DNA from: an uncultured Clostridia bacterium
GTDB lineage: Bacteria; Bacillota; Clostridia; TANB77; CAG-508
Reading direction: 5' to 3'
DNA length: 64,000 bases
Assembly (NCBI GenBank): GCA_934162205.1
Contig: CAKPIA010000001.1
Coordinates: 128,058-192,057, forward strand
This document shows, piece by piece, positions 7,235 through 52,508 of the stretch (positions within the stretch are counted from its first letter, which is position 1; the number at the start of each line of letters is the position of its first letter). The position numbers and the translations under genes were made by a program. The notes below the pieces were generated by a model. The model was not told the origin of the DNA, ran no database searches, and saw only the letters and a program-made list of their open reading frames with translations.

Positions 7235-8335
7235 TTATTTACATTCTTTCCGAAGTATTTTGCTTTTGTCTTCTATTTCTTGTTCAATTTCCTTTTGTAA
7301 CTCTTCTATCCCTATGTTTGTAGCCTCATCAACATCATATACTATATTAGTCTTTTCTTTTTCTTTATATGTCAATTTTGTTACAGAAATAGGTAAATAT
7401 AAATTTGAAAATATTTTAAACTTTTTTTCTGCGTTTATTGTATCATAAAATTCAAATTTTGAAACCCTTTTATTAAAATTTATTTCAAAATTATTAATCT
7501 TAACTCCATACTTATTCTCTTCATTTCCTGTGTCCGTAAGCTTTTCTTGATTGTAATATATTTTTTCTGATTTTGTATGCCAAACTTTTGCCTCAATGTT
7601 TCCAATACTGTGTACATATCTTGTACCCGTGTACTTTCCTTCCATTGTACCAGATATTAATACATCACCTTCTTTTACTGTATCTCCAACATTTACCATA
7701 GCTGTTCCTTTTTGTGCATTTATTTTGGTTATAACGCCTGTTTTGTTTGATACAATGTTGCAATATTCATTTGAATCTATTATATCTGGTTTTTCTTCTG
7801 TTTTTACAACTTTAACAATTACATTTGTACCTTTTAGTTCTATCCCTATCCATGCAATATCTTGTCTTTTTAGTCTTATATTATTTATTATATCTTTAGA
7901 ATTTACTTTTGATTTTAATGTTCCTATTTTCAATCCCGCTTCTTGCAAATCCTGTTCTATATTTATAAGTTCTTTACCATCTTCTTCTTTAATTTCAACA
8001 TTCCATATATAATTAGAACTTAATACTATTAATAATGAAATTATTATTAAAAATAGTCCAAAAATTTTTCTTTTTTTGTATCTATTTAAGACAAATGGCA
8101 ATCCACTTTTCTTTTTTATTTTTATTTTACATTTTGTTTTTCTTGCCACATCTGATAACTGTTTAAAATCTTTTATTCCTATATTTAAATATAGTTTTAC
8201 ATTTTTATCTCTTTTTAAATTCCATATTAATAGTTTTTTATTTGTACATATATTTATAAATCTTTCTATATAATAACCTTCTACACTAATCCTTAAATAT
8301 CCAATTATATAACTAAAAATTATCTTTATAAACAT
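7235..8335 (-). CDS. yqfD: Sporulation protein YqfD.
   Basis: Length about 366 aa, a central TM segment, immediately downstream of yqfC. The conserved yqfC-yqfD pair. Confidence 0.75.
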   Translation of the reverse strand: MFIKIIFSYIIGYLRISVEGYYIERFINICTNKKLLIWNLKRDKNVKLYLNIGIKDFKQLSDVARKTKCKIKIKKKSGLPFVLNRYKKRKIFGLFLIIISLLIVLSSNYIWNVEIKEEDGKELINIEQDLQEAGLKIGTLKSKVNSKDIINNIRLKRQDIAWIGIELKGTNVIVKVVKTEEKPDIIDSNEYCNIVSNKTGVITKINAQKGTAMVNVGDTVKEGDVLISGTMEGKYTGTRYVHSIGNIEAKVWHTKSEKIYYNQEKLTDTGNEENKYGVKINNFEINFNKRVSKFEFYDTINAEKKFKIFSNLYLPISVTKLTYKEKEKTNIVYDVDEATNIGIEELQKEIEQEIEDKSKILRKECK

Positions 8336-8345
8336 TTATTCACCT

Positions 8346-8624
8346 TTATCCTTCTGTTTTTTCTATTTCCATACTATCTATATCTCCAATAATTTTTATA
8401 TCATCACCAGTCATTTGTTCTAACTTTAAATTAAATCCATTTATATTAACAATTCCTATATAAGTATTTACTTTTACATAGTATTCTTCATATTCCAAAA
8501 TTCCTTTATAATTTTCTATTAACATTTCATTAAAACCTACTATTGTTATTTTAGGTTCATTTGTATAGATTTCTTTGGGCATTTCTAAAATACTATCTAT
8601 TTTTCTAAAATTATTCTTCTTCAT
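8346..8624 (-). CDS. yqfC: Sporulation protein YqfC.
   Basis: 92-aa protein with a YqfC-like sequence (ITIVGFNEMLIENYKGILEYEEYYVKV) directly upstream of yqfD. Confidence 0.75.
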   Translation of the reverse strand: MKKNNFRKIDSILEMPKEIYTNEPKITIVGFNEMLIENYKGILEYEEYYVKVNTYIGIVNINGFNLKLEQMTGDDIKIIGDIDSMEIEKTEG

Positions 8625-8639
8625 TATTCCTCCTATGTT

Positions 8640-9461
8640 TTACTCAAACTCGTCTAAACTTTTAATTTCATATCCTTTATTTTTTATTTCTTTTATAATA
8701 CTATCTAATATATTTGTATTCGTTTTTGAATTTCCATGTAATAACATTATCTCGCCATTGTGTAAATTTGATATTACCATCTCTTTTGCTTTTGCTTCAT
8801 CTGGTTGATTTTTTTCATCCCAATCTTTATATGCAAAACTCCACATTACAGTTTTATATCCTAATGATTTTGTTATATTTAAAGTTCTTTCACTATATTC
8901 TCCCATAGGTGGTCTTATATATTTCATTTCATATGCAAATTTTTCATATATTGATTGATGTAATTTCATTACTTCTGTATTAACTTGTTCATCACTTAAT
9001 GATGGCATACTTTTGTGATTTACTGTATGATTTCCTACTATATGTCCTTCTTCTAACATTTGTTTTACCAATTGTTCTTGTGTGTTTAAATAATGTGCAG
9101 TTATAAAAAATGTAGCTTTTACATCATTTTGTTTTAATACTTCTAATATTTTGCTTGTATACCCTGCTTCATATCCTTCATCAAATGTTAAATATATAAC
9201 TTTTTTCTCTTTATTTCCTAAACATATACCATTATTTTGTTCTAATACACTTTGATTCTTTTTTCCAACATCAGGTTGTTCATTATTATTATTTCTTTTT
9301 ATTCCCCATCCTATCTTTTGATTACTTAATGCATTTGAATTTGTAACAGCTGTATTTTTTCCTTCTGTATTACTTAAATAAATAGTACAAATAGAAAACA
9401 TTGCTATTATTAAAATAGAAAATATAACTTTATATAATGAATTTTTTTTATTTTTATACAT
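8640..9461 (-). CDS. Polysaccharide deacetylase (NodB domain), probably sporulation-associated.
   Basis: TFDEGY...GNHTVNHKSM NodB motifs and an N-terminal signal/TM segment. Confidence 0.8.
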   Translation of the reverse strand: MYKNKKNSLYKVIFSILIIAMFSICTIYLSNTEGKNTAVTNSNALSNQKIGWGIKRNNNNEQPDVGKKNQSVLEQNNGICLGNKEKKVIYLTFDEGYEAGYTSKILEVLKQNDVKATFFITAHYLNTQEQLVKQMLEEGHIVGNHTVNHKSMPSLSDEQVNTEVMKLHQSIYEKFAYEMKYIRPPMGEYSERTLNITKSLGYKTVMWSFAYKDWDEKNQPDEAKAKEMVISNLHNGEIMLLHGNSKTNTNILDSIIKEIKNKGYEIKSLDEFE

Positions 9462-10041: not shown

Positions 10042-11820
10042 TTATATTGCTCCATATTTTATTAATAATTTTTCTATTTCGGTACCTTTAATCTTTTTTA
10101 GTCCCTCTTTTAGTGCTAATTTTTGTGGCAATGATAAATCCATTTCTGTAATTTTTTTGCCGTCATTTAATTTTACTGTTGCACTTATTAAATCTCTTAT
10201 ATCATATACACTTCCCCATACTTCTGGAACTCCTCTATCTATATTGCATAATGTATATACTGCTTCCATTGCTGTTCTAATTGAATATTCTGTTGTAAAT
10301 ACTGTGTCTCTTGGTGTTTCTGCATATTGTCCTATAAATGCTAAATTTACAGATCCATTTGGTACAACTAATGGTCTATCTCCATATCTTCTTGGTTCAA
10401 AAAATGATGTTACATATGGCATCATGCATGGTGTTGTATTACATGCATTTTGTGCTAAATCCATAATTCTATCTTTTGGTATTCCTATATGATATAGCCA
10501 TTCAGCTGCAAGTTCAATACCAGTACATTGATACATAGGCTTATCTATAAAGTCTCCTTTATCCTCCCAACAATTTAATCCATAAACCCAAATTAAGCAA
10601 TCATCTTTTGCTTGTTCTCTAAATTGTCCTTGACGATTTATTGTCCAACTTATTAACCAAGATGAATCTTTACATGTTACAATTCCTCCTGTTACAACTT
10701 TACCAGAAAGTGGGTTACGATGACATATTTTTTCTATTGCATCTAGAATTTCTTTATTTGATGTTTCAACAGTCCAAGATTCCCAACTTGTTTCTCTTAT
10801 ATCTTTAAAAAACTTATCTGGATTTCCAAATGCTTTATCTTGTTTAGCCATATTTTTCCACAATTCTATTGATGGACCTTCTCCATTTTTTATTTTCAAC
10901 TCTGGAGCATGTGTTTGGTCTCCATATGCAGAATTATCTCCTTGGCATCCATTTGTTACAAAAACCAAATCATTTTCTGTTAATTCAATTTTTTTGTCTT
11001 CATTATTTTGAGTATAATAAATAACTTTAGCAAGTTTCATTTCTTCATTACAAGTACATTCAACATTTTTTACTGTTGTATCATATTCAAATTTTACTCC
11101 TCTGTCTTTTAAATATTTAACCATTGGTAAAATCATTGATTCATATTGATTGTATCTTGTAAATCTTAATGCACTTAAGTCTGGTAATCCATCTATATGA
11201 TGTATATATCTTTGTAAATATAATTTCATTTCCAATGCACTATGCCATTTTTCAAACGCAAACATTGTCTGCCAATAAATCCAGAAATTAGTTTTATAAA
11301 ACTCTTCATCAAATAAATCATCAATTGTCTTATCTGCTAATTCCTCATCTGTTGCCATAAATAATTTTAATAATTCTTCTGTTGCTTTAGGATTCATTCC
11401 ATATTTTTTATCTGTATGAGCATCTTGTCCTTGTTTTTCTGTTACACGACATAATGAATAATTTGGATCTTCTTTATTTACTTTGTAATATTCGGAAAAT
11501 ATAGTTTCTCCTGGATTGTCTATTGATGGTATTGAACGAAATAAATCCCACATACATTCAAAGTGATTATCCATTTCACGTCCACCACGCATAATATATC
11601 CTTTGTTTTTATCAAATATCCCATCACATGAGCCTCCTGGCAATGGTAAGTGCTCAAATAATGTTATATTTTCTCCTTTCATTTGAGCATCTCTTACTAA
11701 AAAACAAGCTACTGATAATCCTCCTAATCCTGTTCCTACTATATAAGCTTTTTTATTTTCTATCCCCTCTGGTTTTTCTGCTTTTGCAAAAGCTTCATAA
11801 TTTCCATTTGAATAATACAT
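10042..11820 (-). CDS. ohyA: Oleate hydratase (fatty-acid double-bond hydratase, MCRA family).
   Basis: MYYSNGNYEAFA N-terminus, FAD-binding GTGLGGLSVA, RGGREM motif. Length is 592 aa. Confidence 0.9.
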   Translation of the reverse strand: MYYSNGNYEAFAKAEKPEGIENKKAYIVGTGLGGLSVACFLVRDAQMKGENITLFEHLPLPGGSCDGIFDKNKGYIMRGGREMDNHFECMWDLFRSIPSIDNPGETIFSEYYKVNKEDPNYSLCRVTEKQGQDAHTDKKYGMNPKATEELLKLFMATDEELADKTIDDLFDEEFYKTNFWIYWQTMFAFEKWHSALEMKLYLQRYIHHIDGLPDLSALRFTRYNQYESMILPMVKYLKDRGVKFEYDTTVKNVECTCNEEMKLAKVIYYTQNNEDKKIELTENDLVFVTNGCQGDNSAYGDQTHAPELKIKNGEGPSIELWKNMAKQDKAFGNPDKFFKDIRETSWESWTVETSNKEILDAIEKICHRNPLSGKVVTGGIVTCKDSSWLISWTINRQGQFREQAKDDCLIWVYGLNCWEDKGDFIDKPMYQCTGIELAAEWLYHIGIPKDRIMDLAQNACNTTPCMMPYVTSFFEPRRYGDRPLVVPNGSVNLAFIGQYAETPRDTVFTTEYSIRTAMEAVYTLCNIDRGVPEVWGSVYDIRDLISATVKLNDGKKITEMDLSLPQKLALKEGLKKIKGTEIEKLLIKYGAI

Positions 11821-15138: not shown

Positions 15139-15741
15139 TTAGTATACTTCATAACCATATTTATTATTAGTTAGTCTGTACATTACTTTAGTTATTGATA
15201 AGGTCTGAAGTAATGTTCCTATAATTAATATGTTAGATATTACATTATCTCTTATGAAAATTGCAGCTATCAAAGAAATTGTAGCTATAATATAAGAAGC
15301 TAATTGTTTCTTTCGTCTTACTTTAGTTTCTAAGATAGGTACTTCTTCTGTGTCAGCCGGTGCATAAAGTTTTATCATTGCCATCGAAAATATCCATATT
15401 AATGATATAAGAATATATTTAACAATATCATTTAAAACTATATATTGACTTACAAATGCAGTACCACAATATGTTAATGTTGTTGCTATTATGCAACCAA
15501 TATGTGTATGTAGGTGAAATCCTCCCGAAACTGATCTGTATGGCATTATTAATATAAAAGTTATTAGTGTTAATTTAAATATACCTAATATCCATGATAT
15601 TAATAATATTATAAAAATTTTTGGTATCTCACCTATTAAAATTTGTAGGCCATAATTGATGACTTGCGTTCTCTCATCATCAATTTCTGGCATTTTCTTT
15701 CGTATTTTGTTGGTTAAAAATAAGCAGATTTTGTCTATCAT
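15139..15741 (-). CDS. agrB: AgrB-family AgrD-processing membrane endopeptidase.
   Basis: 200-aa polytopic membrane protein with the conserved RSVSGGFHLHTHIGCIIATTL block (catalytic His/Cys). RBS is GAGGTGAGGTG. Confidence 0.85.
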   Translation of the reverse strand: MIDKICLFLTNKIRKKMPEIDDERTQVINYGLQILIGEIPKIFIILLISWILGIFKLTLITFILIMPYRSVSGGFHLHTHIGCIIATTLTYCGTAFVSQYIVLNDIVKYILISLIWIFSMAMIKLYAPADTEEVPILETKVRRKKQLASYIIATISLIAAIFIRDNVISNILIIGTLLQTLSITKVMYRLTNNKYGYEVY

Positions 15742-15929
15742 ATTTTTTCACCTCACCTCTATTTGAGTTCAATTAGAGTTTATCATTAATATTCATTTTT
15801 GATTTTTTTCTTTTATAAAATGTATAAAATAATTCATAAAACTTTTTTCCATGTATTTTTTGTAAAAAAATCATTTTATAAAAAAAGAGGCTAGAAATTT
15901 TTTCTAGTCTCTTAAGAAAATTATTACTT

Positions 15930-17009
15930 TTATAAAGTTTCTTTATACATATTTGCATACATTTCCAATGCATCATCAAAAGAATCTGCAAGAATAATCT
16001 CACCATGTAATTTCATAATACCTTTCTGATATTTATCCATTACAGGTTTAATTTTATAGAGTTCTCCCCATTCTCCATACCGAAGATATTCACTACTATT
16101 GTACTTTAAAGTCTTATTACTATAAGTAATATCTTTACAATGACCATGTACAATAATACTCTTCTTTGGAAAAGTTTCAAATAATTCAAGTACCAAAGGT
16201 GTCTCAGAAGATGGATTAATTTTTCCAGCCCAAGAAACAATATGATCTTTACTGTCAAGAATAAGTGTAAGATTTTCTCGTTTCAATGCTCCTACAGAGG
16301 CTCCAGTAGACGTTATTAAAACTCCCTCTGGTATCTTTCTTGCAATAAAACCAGCCACACCATTAGTATATTGATTCTCTTGCAAAAATTTTCCTACTGT
16401 AAAAAATTCTGGAAAATATTTAGTAATAATATCTGTCATGTCATAATCAATCTTCTTGTGTGAATATCTTATCTTTGTATATCTGTGGCATATATTATCT
16501 AAAATCTTTTCCCATGGAGCCATTGTAATTCTATCCAAAGTTCCATCTTCATTATAAATGTACTCTGGATATACAATAGAAACATTACCAAAAGCATTAA
16601 TCTTAGCAAAGTTTTCCTTAGTTATAGGATGATTGAAATATCCCTGGTTCATAGATGGTGCAATTACAATGTACTTACCATATCCAATTGCTGAATGAAT
16701 AATCGATAATGGATAATTATCAGCAATTCCATTAGCAATTTTTGAAAATGTATTAAAAGTACATGGTGCTACAACAATTAAATCTTCTTCAGGAATTCTT
16801 TCATTGATAGAATTTGCTCTATTAAATGTATAGTCTCTCTTAATTTTATACCCTTCAACTGTTCTTAAGTCCATTATTGAACAACTAGCCGCAGTAGGCA
16901 TTAGGATACATGTTGCTCCTTCTGCTTTAAGGTAATCTAAGAGAATCTTTACATCTTTACTCTTGTTAGCTCCTGTTGTTACAACATAAACCACTTTACC
17001 TTTAAGCAT
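15930..17009 (-). CDS. Fusion protein with an N-terminal HFCD/CoaC-like flavoprotein domain and a C-terminal class II aldolase/adducin domain.
   Basis: N-terminal VVYVVTTGANKS...LIVVAPCTFNTFSKIANGIADN...YIVIAPSMN matches the flavoprotein (PF02441-like) signature. C-terminal NGVAGFIARK..VLITSTGASVGALKRENL...SSETPLVLELF...IIVHGHC matches the class II aldolase signature (GGN(I/V)S, ITPSG, HTHS-like). Confidence 0.6.
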   Translation of the reverse strand: MLKGKVVYVVTTGANKSKDVKILLDYLKAEGATCILMPTAASCSIMDLRTVEGYKIKRDYTFNRANSINERIPEEDLIVVAPCTFNTFSKIANGIADNYPLSIIHSAIGYGKYIVIAPSMNQGYFNHPITKENFAKINAFGNVSIVYPEYIYNEDGTLDRITMAPWEKILDNICHRYTKIRYSHKKIDYDMTDIITKYFPEFFTVGKFLQENQYTNGVAGFIARKIPEGVLITSTGASVGALKRENLTLILDSKDHIVSWAGKINPSSETPLVLELFETFPKKSIIVHGHCKDITYSNKTLKYNSSEYLRYGEWGELYKIKPVMDKYQKGIMKLHGEIILADSFDDALEMYANMYKETL

Positions 17010-17020
17010 ATTATTTCCTC

Positions 17021-17530
17021 CTATTCAAAATTATATTTTCGATATAGTTCATATGCAATCGCCGAAACAGCAACTGGTAATGTAAGAAAATCAACTTTTG
17101 ATTTATCCATTGGTAGCTTAATTATTTCATCTAACATTTTCTGTTTAGCAATAGTTAAGCCAGATGTTTCTGTTCCAAAAACTACAACAACATCTTTATC
17201 TTCAGGTAAATCTAAATCATAAAAAATTTTGTTGGTGTTTCCAGATGTACCAATAAGATATTTTCCCTTTGCTCTTAAGTCCGTAATAGCTTCTTCAAAG
17301 GTATTGTAATGAATCTCCTTTACCTCACCTGTAATATTCCATGATTTAACTTTACTTGTAATTTTTGGAATATCAAATGGTATTGAATTTTTTCCAGCCG
17401 TATAGATAACGCAATCAATTGCATTTGCAATCTGGATAACATGTGCAATATCATACGGTGACCGAATTGTGTCAAATAACAGTTCTACTTTTTTCATAAT
17501 GTTTACCTCACCTTTCACTTTTTTTTGCAA
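17021..17530 (-). CDS. SPOUT (SpoU/TrmH-family, TrmL-like) RNA 2'-O-methyltransferase.
   Basis: VVVFGTETSGL and IKLPM...TLPVAVSAIAYELYR motifs. Length is 169 aa, comparable to TrmL. Confidence 0.65.
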   Translation of the reverse strand: MQKKVKGEVNIMKKVELLFDTIRSPYDIAHVIQIANAIDCVIYTAGKNSIPFDIPKITSKVKSWNITGEVKEIHYNTFEEAITDLRAKGKYLIGTSGNTNKIFYDLDLPEDKDVVVVFGTETSGLTIAKQKMLDEIIKLPMDKSKVDFLTLPVAVSAIAYELYRKYNFE

Positions 17531-18218
17531 CCAAAATAAATGGATCTGATGTTATGTTACAATTACCATTTAAGTTTTCTATTATTTTTTCTTCATCTTT
17601 TTCAGAATAATTCTCAATAAAAGGAAAACTTTTAGTAATGTTAATAATTTCTTGAACACTTTGATACTTTCTTTGTATCTCATATTGTTCAACACTAATA
17701 ATATCAAACCCAGATTTCTCAAGTTTAGTAGAATAATATTCAATCTTTCTGCTTCTAATCAGTCTATTTCTAAACAGACTAGCTATTTCTACTAATCCCT
17801 TACTTGGTCCATATTCTCTAAAAACAAAATATCCCCCATTTTTAAGTACTCTGTATAATTCATCAGAATCATATATAGTTACATTTTTTGCAGTAATAAT
17901 ATCAAAAGAATTATTTGCAAAAGGAAGATTATTATTGTCTGCTTCAAGAATATTTGCACTTTCTCCCAAATTTTTTCTGGCTACTTTTACCATTTCACTT
18001 GAATTATCAACTCCTGTCAATGTGCTTTTGATACTTGAACATTCTTTAATTTGTTTTAATACAAATCCATTTCCTGTTCCAATATCAAGGATTTTAGATC
18101 CCTCTTCCATAAAAGAAATAATTTTCCGAACAAACAAACTATTAATATCCTGAGTTTGTTTGACGGGTGCTGCAATACTAGTGCTACGAATATTCACAAC
18201 TTTTTCATCGTAAAACAT
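17508..18218 (-). CDS. Class I SAM-dependent methyltransferase.
   Basis: ILDIGTGNGFV motif I, Methyltransf_11-like. Overlaps the downstream SPOUT gene by 23 nt. Confidence 0.75.
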   Translation of the reverse strand: MFYDEKVVNIRSTSIAAPVKQTQDINSLFVRKIISFMEEGSKILDIGTGNGFVLKQIKECSSIKSTLTGVDNSSEMVKVARKNLGESANILEADNNNLPFANNSFDIITAKNVTIYDSDELYRVLKNGGYFVFREYGPSKGLVEIASLFRNRLIRSRKIEYYSTKLEKSGFDIISVEQYEIQRKYQSVQEIINITKSFPFIENYSEKDEEKIIENLNGNCNITSDPFILVAKKSER

Positions 18219-18327
18219 CTTTTCACCCTTTCATAAATTATTTTTACTGGATCATTTTATCATTTTATGTATACTTTGTCAATAATTAAGCTTTTAAAAT
18301 ACAAAAAGTACAGCATTAACTGTACTC

Positions 18328-18771
18328 TTAAAATTTATCTATCTTTTCTTCTTTAAAAAATTTTTCCTTTTTAATTCCTAATTTTAAAACATCTTCTAGT
18401 ATTTTCTTATCTCCAAACCAATTTATTTGTTCTATAAATTCATCAAACTTGCACCATTTATAATCTATACTTTCTTCATTCAATACGATATTGGTTTTAT
18501 TTACAAAACTTATATACACATATTCTTTACAATGTACTTTTAATGATTCATATTCTAAAATCCAATTTAAATAAATATTATTATTAGTCAATAGTCCTGT
18601 TTCTTCTTTTACTTCTCTTTTAACAGTTTCTTCTCTATCTAAATCCTCTTCTTCACATCCTCCTGTTACTACATACCAAAATGATTTTTTAAATTGTGGA
18701 TCATCATCACTACCTTTTAATAATAATATTTCGTTATATTCATTTACAATAAATGTTAAAATTTTATTCAC
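18328..18771 (-). CDS. NUDIX hydrolase.
   Basis: Nudix box GGCEEEDLDREETVKREVKEETGL. Confidence 0.8.
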   Translation of the reverse strand: MNKILTFIVNEYNEILLLKGSDDDPQFKKSFWYVVTGGCEEEDLDREETVKREVKEETGLLTNNNIYLNWILEYESLKVHCKEYVYISFVNKTNIVLNEESIDYKWCKFDEFIEQINWFGDKKILEDVLKLGIKKEKFFKEEKIDKF

Positions 18772-18930
18772 TTATATCACCATATATAAGTATATCACTT
18801 AACCATATATTTAGCAATAAATTATCAAGTCATTTACTTTTATGTAAATTCATGCTATAATATTGACGTTCTCAATTATATTTAAACACAAACTATGTTT
18901 TAGTTTGTAAATCTACAAGGAGGTATTGAC

Positions 18931-19734
18931 ATGAGTAATTGGTACGAATCTAGCATCAAGTCATTGGTTGAAGAGTATTTTAAAGAACATGGTTTTCCCG
19001 TTGTCTTTGACTCTTCAGAGTTCTGGAATGTGTTTATTGAAAAATATCATAAACAACTTCCCAGCTCTCAAATAGCACATTTTGATAAAATTGCTACAGA
19101 AGCACGGTCATATGCATTTAATAAAAAATATGGTACCTATTCATATTTAACAGATTATCGTTCTGTATGTGAAAATTGGAATCATATTATCTTAAATGAA
19201 ATCCAAAAAATTCTTGGAAAAAATTTGGATTCAAAAAAAGTTCTTGCTTTAGGAGCTAATAACGGCTCTGAACTTGCTATCATCTTTGAGAATTTTTTTA
19301 ATACAATTGATTTTAATGTTGTAGAAATCTCAGAAACAGCTTGTTCTTCTGGCAAGACACTTTATCCAAATATTAATTTCATATGTGCGTCAATGGATGA
19401 AGTACCTCTTTCTGAAAATGAATTTGATATTTTCATCAGTTTACGTGCTGCATACTGTGCGGGTAATAACCTCGACTTTATAGTTAACAAGGCTATCCAT
19501 TCTGTTAAACCTGGCGGAGTTATCATCTTTTCCATATCAAATGGATACATTGATGTATCTGATGGTAAATATACACCTATTAAAGGAGTATATAACCCGG
19601 AAAATAAACATTGTGATGAAACAGAAACTGAAAGAAACATCAATTGGATGAAAAATGCTATGTTGACAAATGGTTGCTCAAAGGTTGATTTAGTTGATGC
19701 AGAAAGTGAGATTCTACTTATTTCTAAGCGTTAA
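18931..19734 (+). CDS. Putative SAM-dependent methyltransferase-like protein.
   Basis: KVLALGANNGSEL (motif I-like), FDIFISLRAAY, VKPGGVIIFSI. The assignment is tentative. Confidence 0.45.
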   Translation: MSNWYESSIKSLVEEYFKEHGFPVVFDSSEFWNVFIEKYHKQLPSSQIAHFDKIATEARSYAFNKKYGTYSYLTDYRSVCENWNHIILNEIQKILGKNLDSKKVLALGANNGSELAIIFENFFNTIDFNVVEISETACSSGKTLYPNINFICASMDEVPLSENEFDIFISLRAAYCAGNNLDFIVNKAIHSVKPGGVIIFSISNGYIDVSDGKYTPIKGVYNPENKHCDETETERNINWMKNAMLTNGCSKVDLVDAESEILLISKR

Positions 19735-19787: not shown

Positions 19788-20475
19788 CTCAATTTTTACA
19801 TCTTTTAAAATACACCATGTTCCATTGCTTTCTGGAAAATCTTTAAATACCATTTCTTCTTTTGTTGTAGGATGACTAATTTTTAACTTATATGCCCATA
19901 ATGCTATTTGTTTTCCTTTACCTCTTGTTCCATATTTTTGATCACCAAATATACTATGTCCAAAATTAGATAATTGAACTCTTATTTGATGGTGTCTTCC
20001 TGTATGAAGATTTATTTTTAATAAAGATAAATTTTTTACTTCATTATATGCAAGAACTTCATAATCTAATTTAGCAAATTTACTATTTTTCTTATCTTTA
20101 TTTACAACTTTGCTTATATTATTTCTTTCATCTTTATATAAATAATCTTCTAATGTTCCGCTTCTTATTTTCTATTTTTCCATCAACAACAGCAAGATAC
20201 ATTTTGCTAAACTCTTTATTTCTTATTTGTTCACTAAGTCTTGATGCAGCTTTAGATGTTTTGGCAAATACCATAACTCCTCCAACTGGTCTATCTAATC
20301 TATGAACAAGTCCTAAATAAACATTTCCTGGTTTATTATATTTTTCTTTTATGTATTCTTTTATAATTGTAAGCATATCTATATCTTCTGTTTTATCTGA
20401 TTGTGATGGTATGTTAGGCTTTTTTTCTACAACTATTATGTGATTATCCTCATAAATAATTTTTAAATCTTGCAT
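19778..20475 (-). pseudogene. RluA-family pseudouridine synthase interrupted by a +1 frameshift. The extra base lies near plus-strand 20160.
   Basis: The N-terminal frame contains HRLDRPVGGVMVFAKT (catalytic Asp motif) and ends KIENKKRNIRRLFI*. The downstream frame continues GTLEDYLYKDERNNISK...HTGRHHQIRVQL..., the conserved RluA C-terminal core. Removing the C in AAGAAGCGGAACA restores KIENKKGTLEDY. Confidence 0.75.
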
Positions 20476-20486
20476 TTTTTCTCCTC

Positions 20487-21350
20487 TTATTTTTCCCATC
20501 TTCCATATATACCACATGGCAATATCAATTTTGACTCTTCCATTGGTAATCCAATTTCACCTGATGTTACTTTTCCTTTATATTTTTTTGATACTGTTAA
20601 TTTTAAAATATCTTGTAACACTACATTTGATATTCCTGTTGTATATGAATTTATTAAGAAAAATAAAGGATCATCTGATAATACTTTTGTACACAAATCT
20701 ACTAAATCATATATATTATTTTCAAATTGCCATACTTCTCCATTTGTTCCTCTACCATATGATGGTGGATCCATTATTATTGCATCATATTTATTTTCTC
20801 TTCTTATTTCTCTATTAACAAATTTTACAACATCATCAACTATATATCTTACTTTTCTATCTTCTAAACCTGATGAAACAACATTTTCTTTTGCCCATGT
20901 AACCATTCCTTTTGAACTATCAACATGACAACAAGATGCTCCCGCTGATAAACAGGCAACTGTTGCACCACCAGTATATGCAAATAAATTTAGCACTTTT
21001 ATTTCTCTTTTTTCTGATTTTATTTTATCTATCATCCAATCCCAATTAACTGCTTGTTCTGGGAATAAACCTGTATGTTTAAATCCCATTGGCTTTATAT
21101 TAAAAGTTAAATCTTTATATTTTATTTGCCATTGTTTTGGCATTTTTTTATTATATTCCCATGCTCCACCACCAGTTTTACTTCTATGATATGTAGCATT
21201 TATTTCATTCCATTTTTTTGGAAAACTTTTATCTTTCCAAATTATTTGTGGATCTGGTCTAGATAAAACAACATTTCCCCATCTTTCTAACTTTTGTCCA
21301 TCTGCCATATCTAATATTTTATAATCTTTCCAATCATTTGCTATATTCAT
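20487..21350 (-). CDS. Class I SAM-dependent RNA methyltransferase (RlmI/RlmK-like, COG1092).
   Basis: LNLFAYTGGATVA SAM-binding and DPPSY motifs. Length is 287 aa. Confidence 0.7.
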   Translation of the reverse strand: MNIANDWKDYKILDMADGQKLERWGNVVLSRPDPQIIWKDKSFPKKWNEINATYHRSKTGGGAWEYNKKMPKQWQIKYKDLTFNIKPMGFKHTGLFPEQAVNWDWMIDKIKSEKREIKVLNLFAYTGGATVACLSAGASCCHVDSSKGMVTWAKENVVSSGLEDRKVRYIVDDVVKFVNREIRRENKYDAIIMDPPSYGRGTNGEVWQFENNIYDLVDLCTKVLSDDPLFFLINSYTTGISNVVLQDILKLTVSKKYKGKVTSGEIGLPMEESKLILPCGIYGRWEK

Positions 21351-25263: not shown

Positions 25264-25461
25264 TTTTCCTCCATAACTTATAGTAATTATGTATTTCTCT
25301 ATAATTAATATATAATATTATTTAATAAAAGACAATATTATACTAACACTATTATTAGAAATTTTTAAAAAAACTTGCAACTTTTTTGGTATTATTGTAA
25401 TATAATAAAGTAAAATTGAAAGGCAAATAATAAAATTTAAAAGAAAGGAGTTTATTTATTA

Positions 25462-25640
25462 CATAGCGCCTGGACAGTTTATACTGTTGACGAGGACTAA
25501 AGTTATCGAAAAATTCGGCGGATGCTTTAGTGGCATAGCTACTGTCATAGATATTAATAAAAAACAATAGTGATATTGTAACAGAGTTAATATTAGTAGC
25601 TATTATTTGTATGCTTTCAATTCCAATAATATTTTTTAAG
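25462..25640 (+). ncRNA. glmS_ribozyme: glmS ribozyme (GlcN6P-responsive self-cleaving riboswitch).
   Basis: AGCGCCUGGACAGUU...GACGAGGA...GUUAUCGAAAAAUUCGGCGGAUGC core blocks immediately upstream of glmS. Confidence 0.8.
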
Positions 25641-25651
25641 GAGGATTCACT

Positions 25652-27475
25652 ATGTGTGGAATTGTAGGTTATATAGGAACAAAAAAAGCCAGTCCTATAC
25701 TTATTAATGGGCTTTTAAAATTAGAATATAGAGGTTATGATTCAGCAGGAATTTCAACAATTGAAAATGGCTCTATATCAGTTATGAAAGATAAAGGAAG
25801 AGTAAAAAATTTATACGATTTAGACGGAATTAATGATTTAGTTGGAACTGTTGGTATTGCTCATACAAGATGGGCAACTCATGGAAAACCATCTAAAGAA
25901 AACTCTCATCCTCATTTAGATAATACAAATACTTTTTGTGTTGTACATAATGGAATAATTGAGAATTATAATGAATTGCGTGAATTTTTAAAAGATAATG
26001 GATATACTTTCTATTCTGAAACAGATACAGAAGTTATTCCAAATTTAATATCTTATTATTATAAAAAAGGAAATGATTTCTTAAAATCTGTAAATCTTAC
26101 TTGTAATGATTTAAAAGGAAGTTATGCAATTGAAGTTATTTGTAAAGATTTTCCAGACAATATGATTGTTGCAAGAAAAGATAGTCCTTTAGTAATTGGA
26201 AAAGCAGAAAATGAAACATTCATTTCTTCCGATATTCCAGCACTAATATCATTTACAAACACATTCTACTTTTTAAACGATAATGAGATGGCATATATAT
26301 CTAAAGATGATATTAAATTTTATGATAATACCCTAAACGAATTATCTAAAGAATTAACAACTGTAGAATTATCTGCTGATAGTGCTGATAAAGATGGATT
26401 TGAAGATTATATGTTAAAAGAAATTTTTGAACAACCAAAAGCAATAAGAGAAACTATTGGAACATCACTTAATGGTTCAAAAATTCATTTTGAAGGATTA
26501 AATTTAGCAAAAGAATATTTATCTACAATAAATAAAATTTATATGATAGCATGTGGTACTGCAATGCATGCAGGACTTGGTGTAAAATCTAATTTTGAAA
26601 CATTATGCAACATCCCAGTTACAGTTGAAGTTGCTTCAGAATTTAGATATAGAAATCCATTAATTGATGACAAAACTTTATGTATTTATATAAGTCAATC
26701 TGGTGAAACAGCAGATACAATTGCAGCTCTTAAACTTGCAAAATCAAAAGGTGCAAAAACAATTGCAGTTACAAATGTTATAGAAAGTTCTATAACTAGA
26801 GAAGCAGATTATTTTGTATATACTCATGCTGGTCCAGAAATAGCTGTTGCATCAACAAAAGCTTATACATCACAATTAGTTTTACTTAATATTATGGCTC
26901 TTTATTTTGCAGAAACATTAGAAAGTTGTTCTCAAAATAGAATTGATAATATTAAAAAAGAAATTTTAAAACTTTCTGAAAAAGCAGAAGAAATTCTAGA
27001 AAATACAGAAAAAATAAAAGAAATTGCTAAAAAGATTTCTTCACAAAAATATATGTTCTATTTAGGTAGAGGTATTGATTATCCAGTAGCCATGGAAGGT
27101 GCTTTAAAATTAAAAGAAATTTCTTATATTTTCGCAGAAGCTTATCCTTCTGGAGAATTAAAACATGGACCTATTGCTTTAATAGAAAATGGAGTTTCAG
27201 TTATAAATATATTAACAAATTCTACTTTAGTTGAAAAATCTTTAAGTAATGTTCAAGAAGTTGTAACTCGTGGTGCAAATTGTATTATAATTACAAATCA
27301 AGACTTTGATACATCTAGTTTTGAAAATGTAATAAAAATACCAGAAATTTCTGCACTTGTATCACCTATTTTATCTGTTATTCCTCTTCAATTACTTGCT
27401 TACTATATAACTAAAGAAAAAGGATTAGATGTTGATAAACCTAGAAATTTAGCAAAATCTGTAACTGTTGAATAA
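25652..27475 (+). CDS. glmS: Glutamine--fructose-6-phosphate aminotransferase.
   Basis: N-terminal MCGIVGYIG (Cys2 nucleophile), two SIS domains. Length is 607 aa. Confidence 0.95.
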   Translation: MCGIVGYIGTKKASPILINGLLKLEYRGYDSAGISTIENGSISVMKDKGRVKNLYDLDGINDLVGTVGIAHTRWATHGKPSKENSHPHLDNTNTFCVVHNGIIENYNELREFLKDNGYTFYSETDTEVIPNLISYYYKKGNDFLKSVNLTCNDLKGSYAIEVICKDFPDNMIVARKDSPLVIGKAENETFISSDIPALISFTNTFYFLNDNEMAYISKDDIKFYDNTLNELSKELTTVELSADSADKDGFEDYMLKEIFEQPKAIRETIGTSLNGSKIHFEGLNLAKEYLSTINKIYMIACGTAMHAGLGVKSNFETLCNIPVTVEVASEFRYRNPLIDDKTLCIYISQSGETADTIAALKLAKSKGAKTIAVTNVIESSITREADYFVYTHAGPEIAVASTKAYTSQLVLLNIMALYFAETLESCSQNRIDNIKKEILKLSEKAEEILENTEKIKEIAKKISSQKYMFYLGRGIDYPVAMEGALKLKEISYIFAEAYPSGELKHGPIALIENGVSVINILTNSTLVEKSLSNVQEVVTRGANCIIITNQDFDTSSFENVIKIPEISALVSPILSVIPLQLLAYYITKEKGLDVDKPRNLAKSVTVE

Positions 27476-27534: not shown

Positions 27535-27670
27535 ACTAACTATATATTGTTTTTCTATACCTTGCTGTCGCATCCTTCGGATTCCTTTCTAAGGAAGGAT
27601 GCTTCATTCGCCCTCCGCTACGCTCCGGTTGCTCGCTGCGCGGTATTTGAAAAACAATATATAGTTAGTC
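27535..27670 (-). repeat. MITE-like repeat, copy A (inverted relative to copies B and C).
   Basis: 21-bp perfect TIR ACTAACTATATATTGTTTTTC / GAAAAACAATATATAGTTAGT flanking a conserved GC-rich core with a nested hairpin (GCATCCTTC...GAAGGATGC). Confidence 0.8.
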
Positions 27671-29304: not shown

Positions 29305-30633
29305 ATGATTGATATAAAATTCTTAAGAGAAAATCCTGATATTGTTAAAGAAAATATTAAGAAAAAATTTCAAAATCATAAACTTTGTTTAGTAGATGAA
29401 GTTATTGATTTTGATAAAAAATATAGAGAAACAAAATTAAATGGTGATAATTTAAGAGCAGAAAGAAAATCATTAAGTTCTCAAATTGGAAATTTAATGA
29501 AAGCTGGTCAAAGAGATGAAGCTGAATCTGTAAAAAAACAAGTTGAAGAAATTAATGCAAAACTTTCTGAAAATGAAAAATTAGAGGAAGAATATTTTGA
29601 AGAAATAAAATCTAGAATGATGAAAATACCAAATATCATGCATGAATCTGTTCCTATAGGTGAAGATGATAGTAAAAATGTTGAATTACAAAGATATGGT
29701 GAACCTGTTGTTCCAGATTATGAAATTCCATATCATGGAGAAATAATGGAAAAACTTTGTGGATTAGATTTAGATAGTGCAAGAAGAGTTGCTGGACAAG
29801 GCTTCTATTATTTAATGGGTGATGTTGCTAGACTTCATTCTGCTGTATTAACATATGCTAGAGATTTCATGATTAATAAAGGTTTTACATATTGTATTCC
29901 ACCATATATGATTCGTAGTGAAGTTGTAACTGGTGTTATGAGTTTTGAAGAAATGGATGCAATGATGTATAAAATTGAAGGCGAAGATTTATACTTAATT
30001 GGTACTAGCGAACACTCTATGATTGGAAAATTTAAAGATCAAATTTTAAATAAAGCTGATATGCCTTATACTATGACATCTTATTCACCTTGTTTTAGGA
30101 AAGAAAAAGGTTCCCATGGATTAGAAGAACGTGGTGTTTATAGAATACATCAATTTGAAAAACAAGAAATGGTTGTTGTTTGTGAACCAGAAGATTCTTG
30201 GGAATGGTACAACAAAATGTGGTCATATACAGTAGAATTTTTTAGAAGTATGAATATTCCTGTTAGAACATTAGAATGTTGCTCTGGAGATTTAGCAGAT
30301 TTAAAAGCCAAAAGTGTTGATGTTGAGGCTTGGTCTCCTAGACAAAAAAAATATTTTGAAGTTGGAAGTTGTTCAAACTTAACAGATGCTCAAGCAAGAA
30401 GATTAGGAATAAGAATAAAAGGAGAAAATGGAAATTACTTTGCTCATACTCTTAATAACACAGTAGTTGCCCCACCTCGTATGTTAATTTCTATAATGGA
30501 AAATAATTACCAACCAGATGGAAGTGTTATTATTCCAGAAGTATTAAGACCATATATGGGTGGATTAGAAAAAATATCTCCAAAAGAACAAAAGCGGACA
30601 TTAATAACTTTTGTTCTTATTAAAACATTTTGA
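29305..30633 (+). CDS. serS: Seryl-tRNA synthetase. The C-terminus may be altered or extended.
   Basis: N-terminal coiled-coil arm and class II aaRS motifs. Length is 442 aa, about 15 aa longer than typical, with an atypical tail KRTLITFVLIKTF. Confidence 0.9.
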   Translation: MIDIKFLRENPDIVKENIKKKFQNHKLCLVDEVIDFDKKYRETKLNGDNLRAERKSLSSQIGNLMKAGQRDEAESVKKQVEEINAKLSENEKLEEEYFEEIKSRMMKIPNIMHESVPIGEDDSKNVELQRYGEPVVPDYEIPYHGEIMEKLCGLDLDSARRVAGQGFYYLMGDVARLHSAVLTYARDFMINKGFTYCIPPYMIRSEVVTGVMSFEEMDAMMYKIEGEDLYLIGTSEHSMIGKFKDQILNKADMPYTMTSYSPCFRKEKGSHGLEERGVYRIHQFEKQEMVVVCEPEDSWEWYNKMWSYTVEFFRSMNIPVRTLECCSGDLADLKAKSVDVEAWSPRQKKYFEVGSCSNLTDAQARRLGIRIKGENGNYFAHTLNNTVVAPPRMLISIMENNYQPDGSVIIPEVLRPYMGGLEKISPKEQKRTLITFVLIKTF

Positions 30634-30878
30634 AGTCCGCGTCTTTGTTCGTGCGTGAAATTTACAAAGCAAATTTCTGTGCAATATAATAATAATTTTT
30701 ATAAAATAGAAAATTACTTAATTTGTAATTTTCTATTTTTGTCTTTATAATAAGCAATAAATTAAGGTTTTTGTTGTATTTTACATAAAAACATGATATA
30801 ATTTTGCCATAGTAAGTTTTAGTAACCTTTAATATTTAAATTATTATTATTTTTTTAATTAAAAAGGAGGTACACATT

Positions 30879-32174
30879 ATGGGAAAAATTATTCCTTGTG
30901 TCACAGAAATCGTTGGAGCATACTGGGGCGACGAAGGTAAAGGCAGAGTTGCTGCTTTTGAAGCCCGGGATGCAAAATTGGTTTTAAGAACCACTGGTGG
31001 TAATAATGCTGGTCATACAGTGTATTACAATGGAGAAAAAATTCCACTTCATTTAATACCTGGAGGTATTATTTATGATCAAGCAACGGCAGTTATTTGC
31101 CAAGGAGTTGTTGTTGACCCCAAAGTTTTAAAGGACGAGATTGATTTACTTTCTAAGTATATCAATATTACTCCTGATAAACTTATTATTTCAGACTGTG
31201 CTCATCTCATTTTACCGCATCATATTGCCCTGGATAAGATTCAGGAAAATTTACGCGGTAATAATAAGATTGGCACTACAAAATCTGGAATCGGTCCATG
31301 TTATCATGACATGAGTGACCGGGTAGGCATTAGAATGATGGATTTATTCCGTTCTGAAGAAGGTCTTAAAGAACTTATTAAGACTGTATTACAGTTTAAT
31401 GCACCGGTTATGCAGTTAGAAGATATTTCGTATTCTGTTGAAGAGTACTATGATTTCTGTATGACTGCAAAGAAAAATATTGGTAAGTTCATAAAAAATG
31501 CTGAGCCTACAATTGATTTTGCCTTGAAAAATCATGACAAAATCGTCATTGAAGGTGCACAGGCAGATCATTTGGATATTCTTAACGGAGACTATCCAGA
31601 TTGTACAAGTTCACAGTGCAATCCATCTGGAACTCTTTCTGGTGCAGGAATTGGTCCTGTGTATGTTGAAAGAGTAATTGCAACTACAAAGGCATATTGT
31701 TCACGGGTAGGTAATGGTATTTTTCCTACAGAACTGGATGATGATGAAGGAGACATCATAAGAGAATTTGGCTACGAATATGGCACAACTACAGGTCGCC
31801 CACGAAGATGTGGCTGGTTAGACTTAGTTGCTCTAAGAACAGTAACTAGAGGCTATACCGATCTTTGTTTAAACCATTTGGATACAATCGGTTTAATAGG
31901 AAATAAACTTGGACATATAAAAATCTGTACAGGTTATACCTACAAAGGAGTTGTAACATACAACTTCCCTACTGACACAAAAATTAGCGGAAAATCGCCA
32001 AAACCACACTATAAAACATTTGATGGTGGTTGGGAAATTCCTGATAACTGTAGATCTTTTGATGAACTTCCAGAAAAAGCAAAGGAATTTGTTCTCTTTA
32101 TTGAAGAATACACTAAGATTCCTGTTAGCTATATTGGCATAGGTCCTAATAACGAAGATACAATCATTCGTTAA
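30879..32174 (+). CDS. purA: Adenylosuccinate synthetase with strongly atypical (higher) GC content.
   Basis: GDEGKGR P-loop, GGNNAGHT, and TTGRPRRCGW motifs. Length is 431 aa. Local GC is about 40-45% against about 22-25% in the flanks. It uses CGG/CCG/GGC codons that are rare elsewhere in the window. Confidence 0.9.
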   Translation: MGKIIPCVTEIVGAYWGDEGKGRVAAFEARDAKLVLRTTGGNNAGHTVYYNGEKIPLHLIPGGIIYDQATAVICQGVVVDPKVLKDEIDLLSKYINITPDKLIISDCAHLILPHHIALDKIQENLRGNNKIGTTKSGIGPCYHDMSDRVGIRMMDLFRSEEGLKELIKTVLQFNAPVMQLEDISYSVEEYYDFCMTAKKNIGKFIKNAEPTIDFALKNHDKIVIEGAQADHLDILNGDYPDCTSSQCNPSGTLSGAGIGPVYVERVIATTKAYCSRVGNGIFPTELDDDEGDIIREFGYEYGTTTGRPRRCGWLDLVALRTVTRGYTDLCLNHLDTIGLIGNKLGHIKICTGYTYKGVVTYNFPTDTKISGKSPKPHYKTFDGGWEIPDNCRSFDELPEKAKEFVLFIEEYTKIPVSYIGIGPNNEDTIIR

Positions 32175-32195
32175 AATTATCACCAAAACTTACTA

Positions 32196-32235
32196 AGCTA
32201 AGTCACTCTATATAGAGTGACTTAGTATTTTATAT
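32196..32235 (+). terminator. purA terminator.
   Basis: TAAGTCACTCTATATAGAGTGACTTAG palindrome plus a T-run. Confidence 0.6.
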
Positions 32236-32328
32236 ATAAGAATATCTTGTCAAACTATATTTGTTATTATCTTGAAAAAAGCTGTTAAATATGTTATTAT
32301 AAATATATTAATTTAAAGGAGAAAAAAT

Positions 32329-32913
32329 ATGATAGTTCAAAATCCTAAATTTGAAATTTCAGCAGTAAAACCAAGTCAATATCCTACAAATAATTTGCCA
32401 GAAATTGTTTTAGTTGGAAAATCTAATGTTGGAAAATCAAGTTTTATAAATACAATGATAAATAGAAAAAAATTAGCTAGAACAAGTAGTGAACCAGGAA
32501 AAACAAGACAAATTAATTTTTATAATATTGATGAAACCTTTTATTTTGTTGATTTACCTGGTTATGGCTATAGTAAAATGTCTAAACAAGAACAAGTAAA
32601 AGTTGGAAATTTTATTGAAGAATATTTATTTAAAAGACAACAAATTTCTTTAATTATATTTTTAATTGATATAAGGCACTCTCCTACTGCTAATGATAAA
32701 CTTATGTATAATTATGTTATTAGATCAAAATTACCTTTTATTATACTTGCAAATAAAGCTGATAAAATTGCTATAACAAAAGTTTCTGACCAAGTAAGTA
32801 ATTTATTAAAAGAAATAAATCCAATTGGTGATGCAACTTGTTTACCATTTTCTTCTGAAAGAAAAATTTATAAAGAAGATGTTTGGAATATTATTGATGA
32901 ATATATTAAATAA
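32329..32913 (+). CDS. engB: Ribosome biogenesis GTPase EngB/YihA/YsxC.
   Basis: VGKSNVGKSSFIN G1 motif, DLPGYG, NKADK. Confidence 0.9.
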   Translation: MIVQNPKFEISAVKPSQYPTNNLPEIVLVGKSNVGKSSFINTMINRKKLARTSSEPGKTRQINFYNIDETFYFVDLPGYGYSKMSKQEQVKVGNFIEEYLFKRQQISLIIFLIDIRHSPTANDKLMYNYVIRSKLPFIILANKADKIAITKVSDQVSNLLKEINPIGDATCLPFSSERKIYKEDVWNIIDEYIK

Positions 32914-33350: not shown

Positions 33351-33477
33351 TTTATATATATGTTTTGTAATGTCGCATAGCGAGCAACCGGAGCGTAGCG
33401 GAGGGAAAATGAAGCATCCTTCCTTAGAAAGGAATCCGAAGGATGCGACAACAAGACATAAAAAACATATATATAAA
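33351..33477 (+). repeat. MITE-like repeat, copy B.
   Basis: TIR CAATTTATATATATGTTTT / AAAACATATATATAAATTG flanking the same core as copies A and C. Confidence 0.8.
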
Positions 33478-52377: not shown

Positions 52378-52508
52378 AAATCTATATACTGTTTTGCAAT
52401 GCCGCGTAGCGAGCAACCGGAGCGTTAGCGGAGGGCGAATGAAGCATCCTTCCTTAGAAAGGGATCCGAAGGATGCGACAACAAGGCATAAAAAACATTA
52501 TATAGATT
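52378..52508 (+). repeat. MITE-like repeat, copy C.
   Basis: TIR AAATCTATATACTGTTTT / AAAACATTATATAGATTT with the same GC-rich core. Confidence 0.8.

Follow-up and report, generated by a model that had tools for sequence, protein, structure and literature searches.

The adenylosuccinate synthetase gene purA is the strongest compositional outlier in a 64,000-nucleotide (nt) stretch of contig CAKPIA010000001.1 from an uncultured Clostridia bacterium (hereafter the window), where it lies between serS and engB. A first-pass annotation took it for a horizontally acquired cassette. We favour a different reading and give it a probability of roughly 60%: purA would be a resident gene shuffled by recombination, with an excess of guanine plus cytosine (GC) sustained by a bias linked to that recombination, and the change in serS would be a separate insertion. 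Under this reading, purA is probably a housekeeping gene of a very AT-rich (25–30% GC), spore-forming family of gut Clostridia, and monocistronic, with its own extended −10 promoter, ribosome-binding site (RBS) and terminator. It would have lain between serS and engB since before the lineages split, while homologous recombination with diverged alleles of related lineages time and again replaced its alleles or patched them. Such recurrent replacement would leave the gene mosaic, highly variable within the species, roughly twice as diverged between species as the genes beside it and in conflict with their tree. The higher GC content and the rare codons would be a diffuse, stationary property that each lineage keeps independently, sustained by a GC-favouring bias that is tied to frequent recombination and akin to biased gene conversion. 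In a separate event, a hairpin-forming element of ∼100 nt would have inserted at the serS stop codon.

The position of purA is old. The order serS–purA–engB recurs in ten further loci (designated by L numbers), where PurA is 63–95% identical to the protein of the window: 95% in L090, 93% in L083, 72% in L087, 71% in L086, 68% in L088, 66% in L104 and L105, 65% in L100 and 63% in L101 and L102. L091 (67% identical) adds serS–purA on a contig that ends inside purA. The usual wider block is BofA–DUF2508–(Na/Ca exchanger)–serS–purA–engB–...–DUF951–gltX, with rnj beyond it where the contig reaches. Because this synteny recurs in relatives, purA is a resident gene at a long-conserved position and not a recent arrival. 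The first-pass annotation had itself named two findings that would speak against a transfer, namely the same synteny in relatives and the same GC excess of purA in related low-GC genomes. Both were made, the first in the ten loci above and the second in eight syntenic loci described below.

A recent insertion of a foreign purA cassette between serS and engB, with a left junction that altered the 3′ end of serS, is thus scarcely credible. The observations that suggested it are real: the composition of purA is extreme for the window, the gene has its own RBS and terminator, and extra GC-rich sequence lies at the serS stop codon. However, the idea is refuted by a gene order that persists in ten other loci down to 63% PurA identity. 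No integrase and no flanking direct repeat were found around purA, and no tRNA gene lies within the 64-kb window; serS and engB are the sole sizeable open reading frames (ORFs) beside purA, and neither is a mobility gene. A donor search among 5.8 billion proteins returned no PurA homologue of >73% identity outside the species. The likeness to a genomic island or acquired cassette is therefore partial. Composition and codon usage are atypical (z = 12; rare codons at eight times the median) and the transcription signals are the gene's own, but the site, far from being empty in relatives, is occupied in all of them, including the ten syntenic loci, and the mobility genes, tRNA and flanking repeats of such elements are missing.

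The argument about serS turns on the following features.

29305–30633, forward strand: serS, serine–tRNA ligase, 442 amino acids; TIGR00414, 424 bits against a cut-off of 302
30586–30682, forward strand: GC-rich insert of ∼97–118 nt with hairpins at 30586–30650 and 30651–30682; without a counterpart in L090
30703–30741, forward strand: AT-rich hairpin with a ∼15-bp stem, then a T-run; from the fold, and conserved in L090 right after TAA TAA
30774–30802, forward strand: putative purA promoter, TTGTAT–17 nt–TGATATAAT (extended −10); deduced from the sequence
30866–30870, forward strand: purA ribosome-binding site GGAGG, 8 nt before the ATG; read from the sequence and kept in L083, L089 and L090
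30879–32174, forward strand: purA, adenylosuccinate synthetase, 431 amino acids; NF002223, 427.1 bits against 402, and TIGR00184, 399.6 against 395.55
32197–32236, forward strand: intrinsic terminator of purA, a 13-bp stem with a 4-nt loop (32197–32226) and a T-rich tail; from a terminator scan
32329–32913, forward strand: engB/ysxC, ribosome-biogenesis GTPase, the conserved downstream neighbour; TIGR03598, 211 bits against a cut-off of 124

The altered end of serS has a cause of its own. SerS has 442 residues in the window against 428 in relatives, a 14-codon extension (codons 429–442, 30589–30630) that is closed by TGA at 30631–30633; in all other species the protein stops at residue 428, after ...GGLE(K/R)IS-IKK or a near variant. 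Residues 1–418 cover the TIGR00414 model fully. The first-pass annotation was right that the last serS codons form an atypical extension and that a GC-rich string follows the stop: GAAGTCCGCGTCTTTGTTCGTGCGTG lies at 30632–30657, starting within the stop codon, and occurs once in the window. In the conspecific L090, whose flanks are 99–100% identical to the window, serS ends CCA AAA AAA TAA TAA with an AT-rich terminator hairpin directly after it. The window reads CCA AAA GAA CAA AAG CGG ACA ... TGA, with CAA at codon 429 where relatives have TAA. Where L090 has 26 nt after CCA AAA, the window has 118 nt, of which ∼97 nt (30586–30682) are unmatched. An element of ∼100 nt has entered at the stop codon, and the serS reading frame now runs 14 codons into it.

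This insert is found in the window, L001, L083 and L089 and is missing from the conspecific L090 and from other species (L086, L087, L088). Both the 442- and the 428-residue forms of SerS occur in the protein cluster of the species, the longer on more contigs among the variants listed. The ends of the insert are imperfect inverted sequences (GAACAAAAGCGGAC ... GTCCGCGTCTTTGTTC), the RNA fold of 30585–30760 reaches −41 kcal/mol (z = −5.45), and Rfam holds no match to it. The AT-rich hairpin at 30703–30741 is likely the original serS terminator, common to strains without the insert. Because L090 lacks the insert and keeps purA behind the same promoter region, the supposed left junction of a cassette is an independent small insertion and not a boundary of purA: the insert varies within the species, whereas purA and its promoter-like region are present with or without it.

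In its length of ∼100 nt, its strong folding and its presence or absence among conspecific strains, the serS insert resembles miniature inverted-repeat transposable elements (MITEs) and repetitive extragenic palindromic (REP)-like elements. Contigs L001 and L089 begin inside it, and these assembly breaks hint at a repeated element. The insert has one copy in the 64-kb window and is unrelated to the 95-nt repeat described at the end of this text. The GAAGTCCGCGTCTTTGTTCGTGCGTG string was also considered as a copy of that GC-rich repeat and rejected, as the string is unique and the repeat is a different sequence. In L083 (∼7950–7990) and L089 (1–60) the insert contains an extra 40 nt with a hairpin of its own, AGGAAGTTCGAAGAACTTTCCT, a segment that the window lacks.

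The spacers that flank purA take small accessory genes in other lineages, possibly as a minor hot spot of integration. A gene for ToxN, an abortive-infection toxin, lies between purA and engB in L101 (11336–11860), and small minus-strand ORFs lie between serS and purA in L100 (9327–9725) and L101 (9611–9841). In L100, serS is itself split into ORFs of 279 and 140 amino acids (7990–9277), by a frameshift or pseudogene formation or by an assembly error.

The compositional anomaly of purA is large and has two components. The gene has a GC content of 36.9%, or 0.48, 0.38 and 0.243 at the three codon positions (GC1, GC2 and GC3), in a window of 25.4% GC with a median GC3 of 0.107. Its GC3 is the highest of about 50 ORFs, unmatched by any other ORF of at least 150 amino acids in the window. 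The first-pass annotation had put the gene at 40–45% GC and about double its surroundings; its status as the strongest outlier stands, with the figures corrected to 37% and ∼1.45-fold. Expected GC contents were obtained for 56 ORFs by back-translating each protein at the window's background codon frequencies. By this measure purA is expected at 31.0% and observed at 37.0% GC (z = 12, the largest of the 56). About half of the excess, from 25% to 31%, is an ordinary effect of amino-acid composition, because PurA is glycine-rich and lysine-poor. The remaining 6 points are codon choice.

Codon choice in purA is unlike that of its surroundings. As had been noted from the sequence, purA uses G/C-ending codons that are scarce elsewhere: with 2.5% of the window's codons it holds 27% of CGG, both CGC codons, 40% of CTC and 22% of GGC. 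Genome-rare codons make up 8.8% of the gene, compared with a median of 1.1%. CAG usage is 41% against 3%, and TTA, ATA and AGA are depleted. On the same strand, the frequency of A at third positions (A3) falls from ∼0.45 to 0.31, while that of T (T3) is unchanged. Controls came from a contig search with an alignment query on generic PurA motifs, among whose listed matches PurA identity was at most 51%. In six unrelated genomes of 27–30% GC (L003, L005, L006, L008, L013, L022), purA has 30–32% GC and a GC3 near or under the median of neighbouring genes. Translational selection for high expression was rejected as a cause: the signature is not expression-linked, because the ribosomal-protein and translation-factor genes rplT, rpmI, infC, nusA and infB in the AT-rich Clostridia of this family have a low GC3 (0.07–0.13) and a high A3 (0.54–0.68). 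A literature search for a compositional anomaly of purA found nothing relevant.

The same signature recurs across lineages. In the window and nine other loci, purA has 34.5–39.7% GC and a GC3 of 0.19–0.31, compared with ∼0.1 for its neighbours. Eight of the nine are syntenic (L083, L086, L087, L088, L100, L101, L102 and L105); the ninth, L103, has it amid other neighbouring genes and at a PurA identity of only 52–53%. All 13 host contexts examined have 25.6–30% GC. Between lineages, identical residues are encoded by the same codon at a frequency of 0.50, against 0.465 expected under independence, with exceptions in L086–L087 (0.73 vs 0.50) and, more mildly, L100–L102 (0.58 vs 0.49). Third positions that are G or C in both orthologues number 98 where 77 are expected, which is close to chance. 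Across 146 invariant residues, counts of lineages with G or C at the third position fit a binomial distribution, and GC3 is uniform over the length of the gene. Given the saturation of synonymous sites, and G/C third positions that coincide no more than by chance, the GC excess is diffuse and maintained in each lineage independently, and not the fading trace of one transfer. On the strength of the binomial distribution and the uniform GC3, we also rejected the idea that purA conceals a conserved nucleotide element or RNA structure.

Had the ancestor of the family received purA in one ancient transfer from a donor of higher GC content, with amelioration still incomplete, this would account for an excess that is common to many lineages at one locus. 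It would also fit the divergence of the PurA clade, which scores just above the TIGR00184 cut-off, and the purA genes of L104 and L091, which look fully ameliorated. Nonetheless, we consider this history very unlikely. With synonymous sites saturated and G/C third positions unshared beyond chance, a relic should have decayed to a GC3 of ∼0.1, and L103 carries the same excess in another genomic context. Nor is decay seen within the species. Among polarised singleton differences between three conspecific purA alleles, 90 run from weak to strong base pairs (W>S, A/T to G/C) and 60 from strong to weak (S>W), with no net movement towards AT, although the numbers are small and the polarisation rough. 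Finally, the PurA tree is incongruent with that of the flanking genes.

That incongruence is part of a wider body of evidence for exchange at the locus. The first-pass annotation had proposed a PurA phylogeny, which was compared with a tree of the concatenated flanking proteins EngB, GltX, RNase J and SerS. In the flank tree L086 forms a pair with L088 (bootstrap 1.0), and L087 falls into a group with the window and L083 (0.9). The PurA tree instead unites L086 with L087, as sisters at a distance of 0.14 (bootstrap 1.0), compared with a flank distance of 0.27 for the same pair, a conflict that supports exchange in place. In the nucleotide profile, the L086–L087 similarity runs from the serS–purA spacer into the start of engB. 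In almost every other pair PurA is 1.5–3 times more diverged than the flanks, for example 0.36 vs 0.16 for the window and L087, 0.43 vs 0.14 for L100 and L102, and 0.42 vs 0.16 for L086 and L088.

Exchange is equally visible within the species. Three types of purA allele were distinguished: that of the window, L001 and L002, which are the same; that shared by L083, L084 and L085; and that of L089, which is 10 nt from L090. These alleles differ at 107–148 of 1296 nt (8–11%), while the flanking DNA is 97–100% identical. Changed codons are mostly synonymous (∼73 vs 30 non-synonymous). The differences fall in patches that are not the same between alleles, with local divergence of up to ∼30%, a most variable segment at ∼31580–32025 and a sharp return to identity past nt 1150 of the gene. 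In permutation tests, third-position differences are clustered (variance test, p ≤ 0.0002) and stretches of identity exceed the length expected by chance (p ≤ 0.005). PurA has 42 distinct sequences in its 90% protein cluster, and the 15 variants listed are 87–99% identical. SerS variants are 98–100% identical, and the 90% cluster of EngB is a single sequence on 51 contigs.

Two technical or mechanistic sources of this diversity were rejected. Assembly chimaeras are excluded, as independent samples yielded each allele type in identical form. A diversity-generating retroelement does not fit changes that involve all four bases and are mostly synonymous in the codons affected; the flanking 9 kb of purA contain no reverse transcriptase gene. 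These alignments and trees give good support to the replacement of purA alleles by homologous recombination at the resident locus, and to mosaic recombination of the gene there. The proposal of horizontal acquisition thus survives in part, as an exchange of alleles by homologous recombination, although the mechanism of a cassette with a junction was wrong.

In this respect purA resembles the mosaic housekeeping genes produced by interspecies recombination, such as penA and other alleles in Neisseria and Streptococcus and the recombined loci of multilocus sequence typing. Like them, it shows divergence in sharp-edged patches, distinct alleles on near-identical flanks and conflict between trees. 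It differs in having no known selective agent, such as an antibiotic, and in a stable shift of GC content and codon usage that is unusual for mosaics.

Exchange of this kind could in principle import the composition as well. Alleles of purA might arrive continually from unsampled GC-richer relatives (35–40% GC) that share the flanking genes, with replacement outpacing amelioration. Allele replacement and mosaicism are demonstrated, the codon usage of purA (frequent CAG; few TTA, ATA and AGA) is like that of a moderate-GC Firmicute, and GC3 varies by lineage from 0.11 to 0.31. Even so, we regard such a donor pool as unlikely. Every one of the 13 examined hosts of the PurA clade is itself low in GC, and the donor search described above, in a very large gut-rich protein collection, met no homologue beyond the 73% limit outside the species. 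Moreover, the one clearly recent exchange, between L086 and L087, joins two low-GC genomes.

We return, then, to a bias that acts within these low-GC lineages. A GC-favouring bias linked to recombination is our best guess for the cause of the purA excess, and the simplest one, because intense recombination co-occurs with a stationary and diffuse GC excess. Recombination-associated GC enrichment in bacteria is the subject of the biased gene conversion hypothesis. As that hypothesis would have it, the region's most recombining gene is also its GC3-richest, with an enrichment that is diffuse and independent in each lineage. The effect at purA differs in being confined to one gene and large, at two to three times the background GC3.

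Several points weigh against this account. The purA signature is not universal in the clade, because L104 and L091 at the same locus and L106 and L003 in other contexts (0.12) have ordinary purA GC3 values (0.11–0.14). Recombination and high GC are connected only by correlation, a pattern that selection on the codons or the mRNA would also allow. At +0.10 to +0.18, the GC3 excess of purA is greater than the recombination-associated shifts in GC3 reported for bacteria. The per-site ratio of S>W to W>S changes is 1.14 in purA and 1.9 in the downstream flank, a comparison that separates purA from the flank weakly, given the small numbers and the three-taxon polarisation. All sequences are metagenome assemblies, and a second purA copy may serve as a conversion donor. 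A broader formulation, in which purA has a codon and GC equilibrium of its own, kept up by either recombination-driven GC bias or mRNA and codon selection, and is at the same time a hot spot of interspecies exchange, is possible but doubtful.

Selection on the codon or mRNA composition of purA could take the form of rare-codon dosing or conditional translation, or of adenine sparing in the mRNA of an AMP-producing enzyme. Such selection would explain a rare-codon density at eight times the median, to which CGG and CGC, hardly used elsewhere, contribute, as well as the same-strand loss of A3 with T3 unchanged and the persistence of the signature despite saturated synonymous sites. We nevertheless rate it as quite unlikely. 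G/C third positions show no site-specific conservation, the syntenic L104 and L091, and also L106, are without the signature, and mosaicism, tree conflict and raised amino-acid divergence would be left unexplained.

If recombination-linked bias is indeed the cause, purA would illustrate recombination-driven GC bias in bacteria with unusual clarity, in a single gene. In its other form, the finding would point to selection on the mRNA or codons of a gene for AMP synthesis, whether through rare-codon dosing or through economy in A when adenylate is limiting. Data on gut populations could separate recombination-linked GC bias from selection on mRNA composition at this gene. The locus is a compact natural system in which one core gene keeps a signature of GC and rare codons under extreme AT pressure and at a local hot spot of exchange. 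It also holds a caution for annotation: a compositional outlier with its own promoter and terminator, beside an altered neighbour, mimics a fresh insertion, yet the gene is resident at an old, conserved site and the change in serS has a cause unrelated to it.

The protein product is, by prediction, an ordinary PurA, and nothing suggests another function. Adenylosuccinate synthetase joins inosine monophosphate (IMP) to aspartate at the expense of GTP to form adenylosuccinate, the first committed step to AMP. The products of serS, purA and engB each score above the NCBIfam equivalog cut-offs, PurA by margins of only 4–25 bits, with hidden Markov model coverage of residues 11–430. PF00709 is present in PurA homologues, and the closest solved structure is the adenylosuccinate synthetase (AdSS) of Bacillus anthracis (4m0g, E = 3e-99). 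In this enzyme family the P-loop GDEGKG carries the catalytic Asp and NAGHT the catalytic His, and the motifs GTT..GIGP.Y, EGAQ and TTGRPRRxGW bind IMP and aspartate. The clade's motifs GDEGKG, NAGHT, GTT, GIGP, EGAQ and TTGRPRRCGW are invariant or nearly so and align to 4m0g. Invariant residues in 22 clade members include W16–R23 (WGDEGKGR), N43–T47 (NAGHT), G132–T134, G137–P140 (GIGP), E225–Q228, T304–T305, R307, R309 and G312. The guanine-recognition motif N-x-[LI]-D is represented by N332-H333-x-D335, invariant in the clade, and by NSID in 4m0g. Compared with bacterial PurA at large (TIGR00184, NF002223 and PF00709; B. anthracis 4m0g and E. coli 1ade), the protein matches the models over their full length and keeps their motifs; it differs in coming from a divergent clade of uncultured Clostridia, in codon usage that is atypical for its genome and in its unusual variability within the species.

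Two peculiarities of PurA lose their significance in this comparison. The N-terminal AYWGDEGKG, flagged in the first-pass annotation as a deviation, is invariant across the PurA clade, and GAYWGDEGKGK is found in unrelated PurAs too. E. coli PurA has TKLD where the window's protein has NHLD, which is near the NSID of Bacillus. An altered nucleotide specificity was considered on account of NHLD but abandoned, since the corresponding motif of B. anthracis AdSS is NSID. Both AYWGDEGKG and NHLD are typical of the clade, and neither speaks for a foreign origin or an altered function. A phage origin of the PurZ type was likewise rejected, with NF038379 at 110 bits against a cut-off of 300 and no relative in viral contigs.

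The transcription signals of purA are consistent with an independent unit. The gene is bracketed by its own RBS and terminator, as first described: GGAGG at 30866–30870 and the 13-bp-stem hairpin at 32197–32226. The promoter is called putative because it scores under the threshold of a consensus promoter scan; the arrangement TTGCAT/TTGCAC...TGnTATAAT also precedes purA in L086, L087 and L088. For the serS–purA spacer, a search for a riboswitch or other known RNA gave no Rfam match at gathering thresholds and chance-level matches at E ≤ 5.

Elsewhere in the window, a block at 15139–19734 contains the next strongest codon outliers after purA (z = 4–8). It encodes AgrB, a flavoprotein/aldolase fusion, a SpoU methylase and two S-adenosylmethionine (SAM) methyltransferases, has a mildly raised GC content (0.27–0.32) and GC3 (0.15–0.23), and looks like an accessory insertion. 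In L087, AgrB directly adjoins a pseudouridine synthase gene; the pseudouridine synthase ORF beside the block in the window (20134–20517) has 127 amino acids, compared with 230 in L087. An MCRA-family protein of the fatty-acid hydratase type is encoded at 10042–11820 on the reverse strand (711 bits to PF06100), with a GC content of 0.30, relatively high for the genome, that is mostly due to GC1 and GC2. A glmS ribozyme/riboswitch (RF00234, 94 bits) is found at 25454–25604 on the forward strand, directly upstream of glmS (25652–27475). The GC-rich intergenic repeat of ∼95 nt has three copies, at 33365–33460 and 52388–52495 on the forward strand and 27560–27655 on the reverse strand, with a mean column identity of 87%. 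It contains the hairpin GCATCCTTC...GAAGGATGC and belongs to no Rfam family. The 300-nt bin that includes the copy at 33365 is only 74% identical to the conspecific L089 and L090, with 37 gapped positions.

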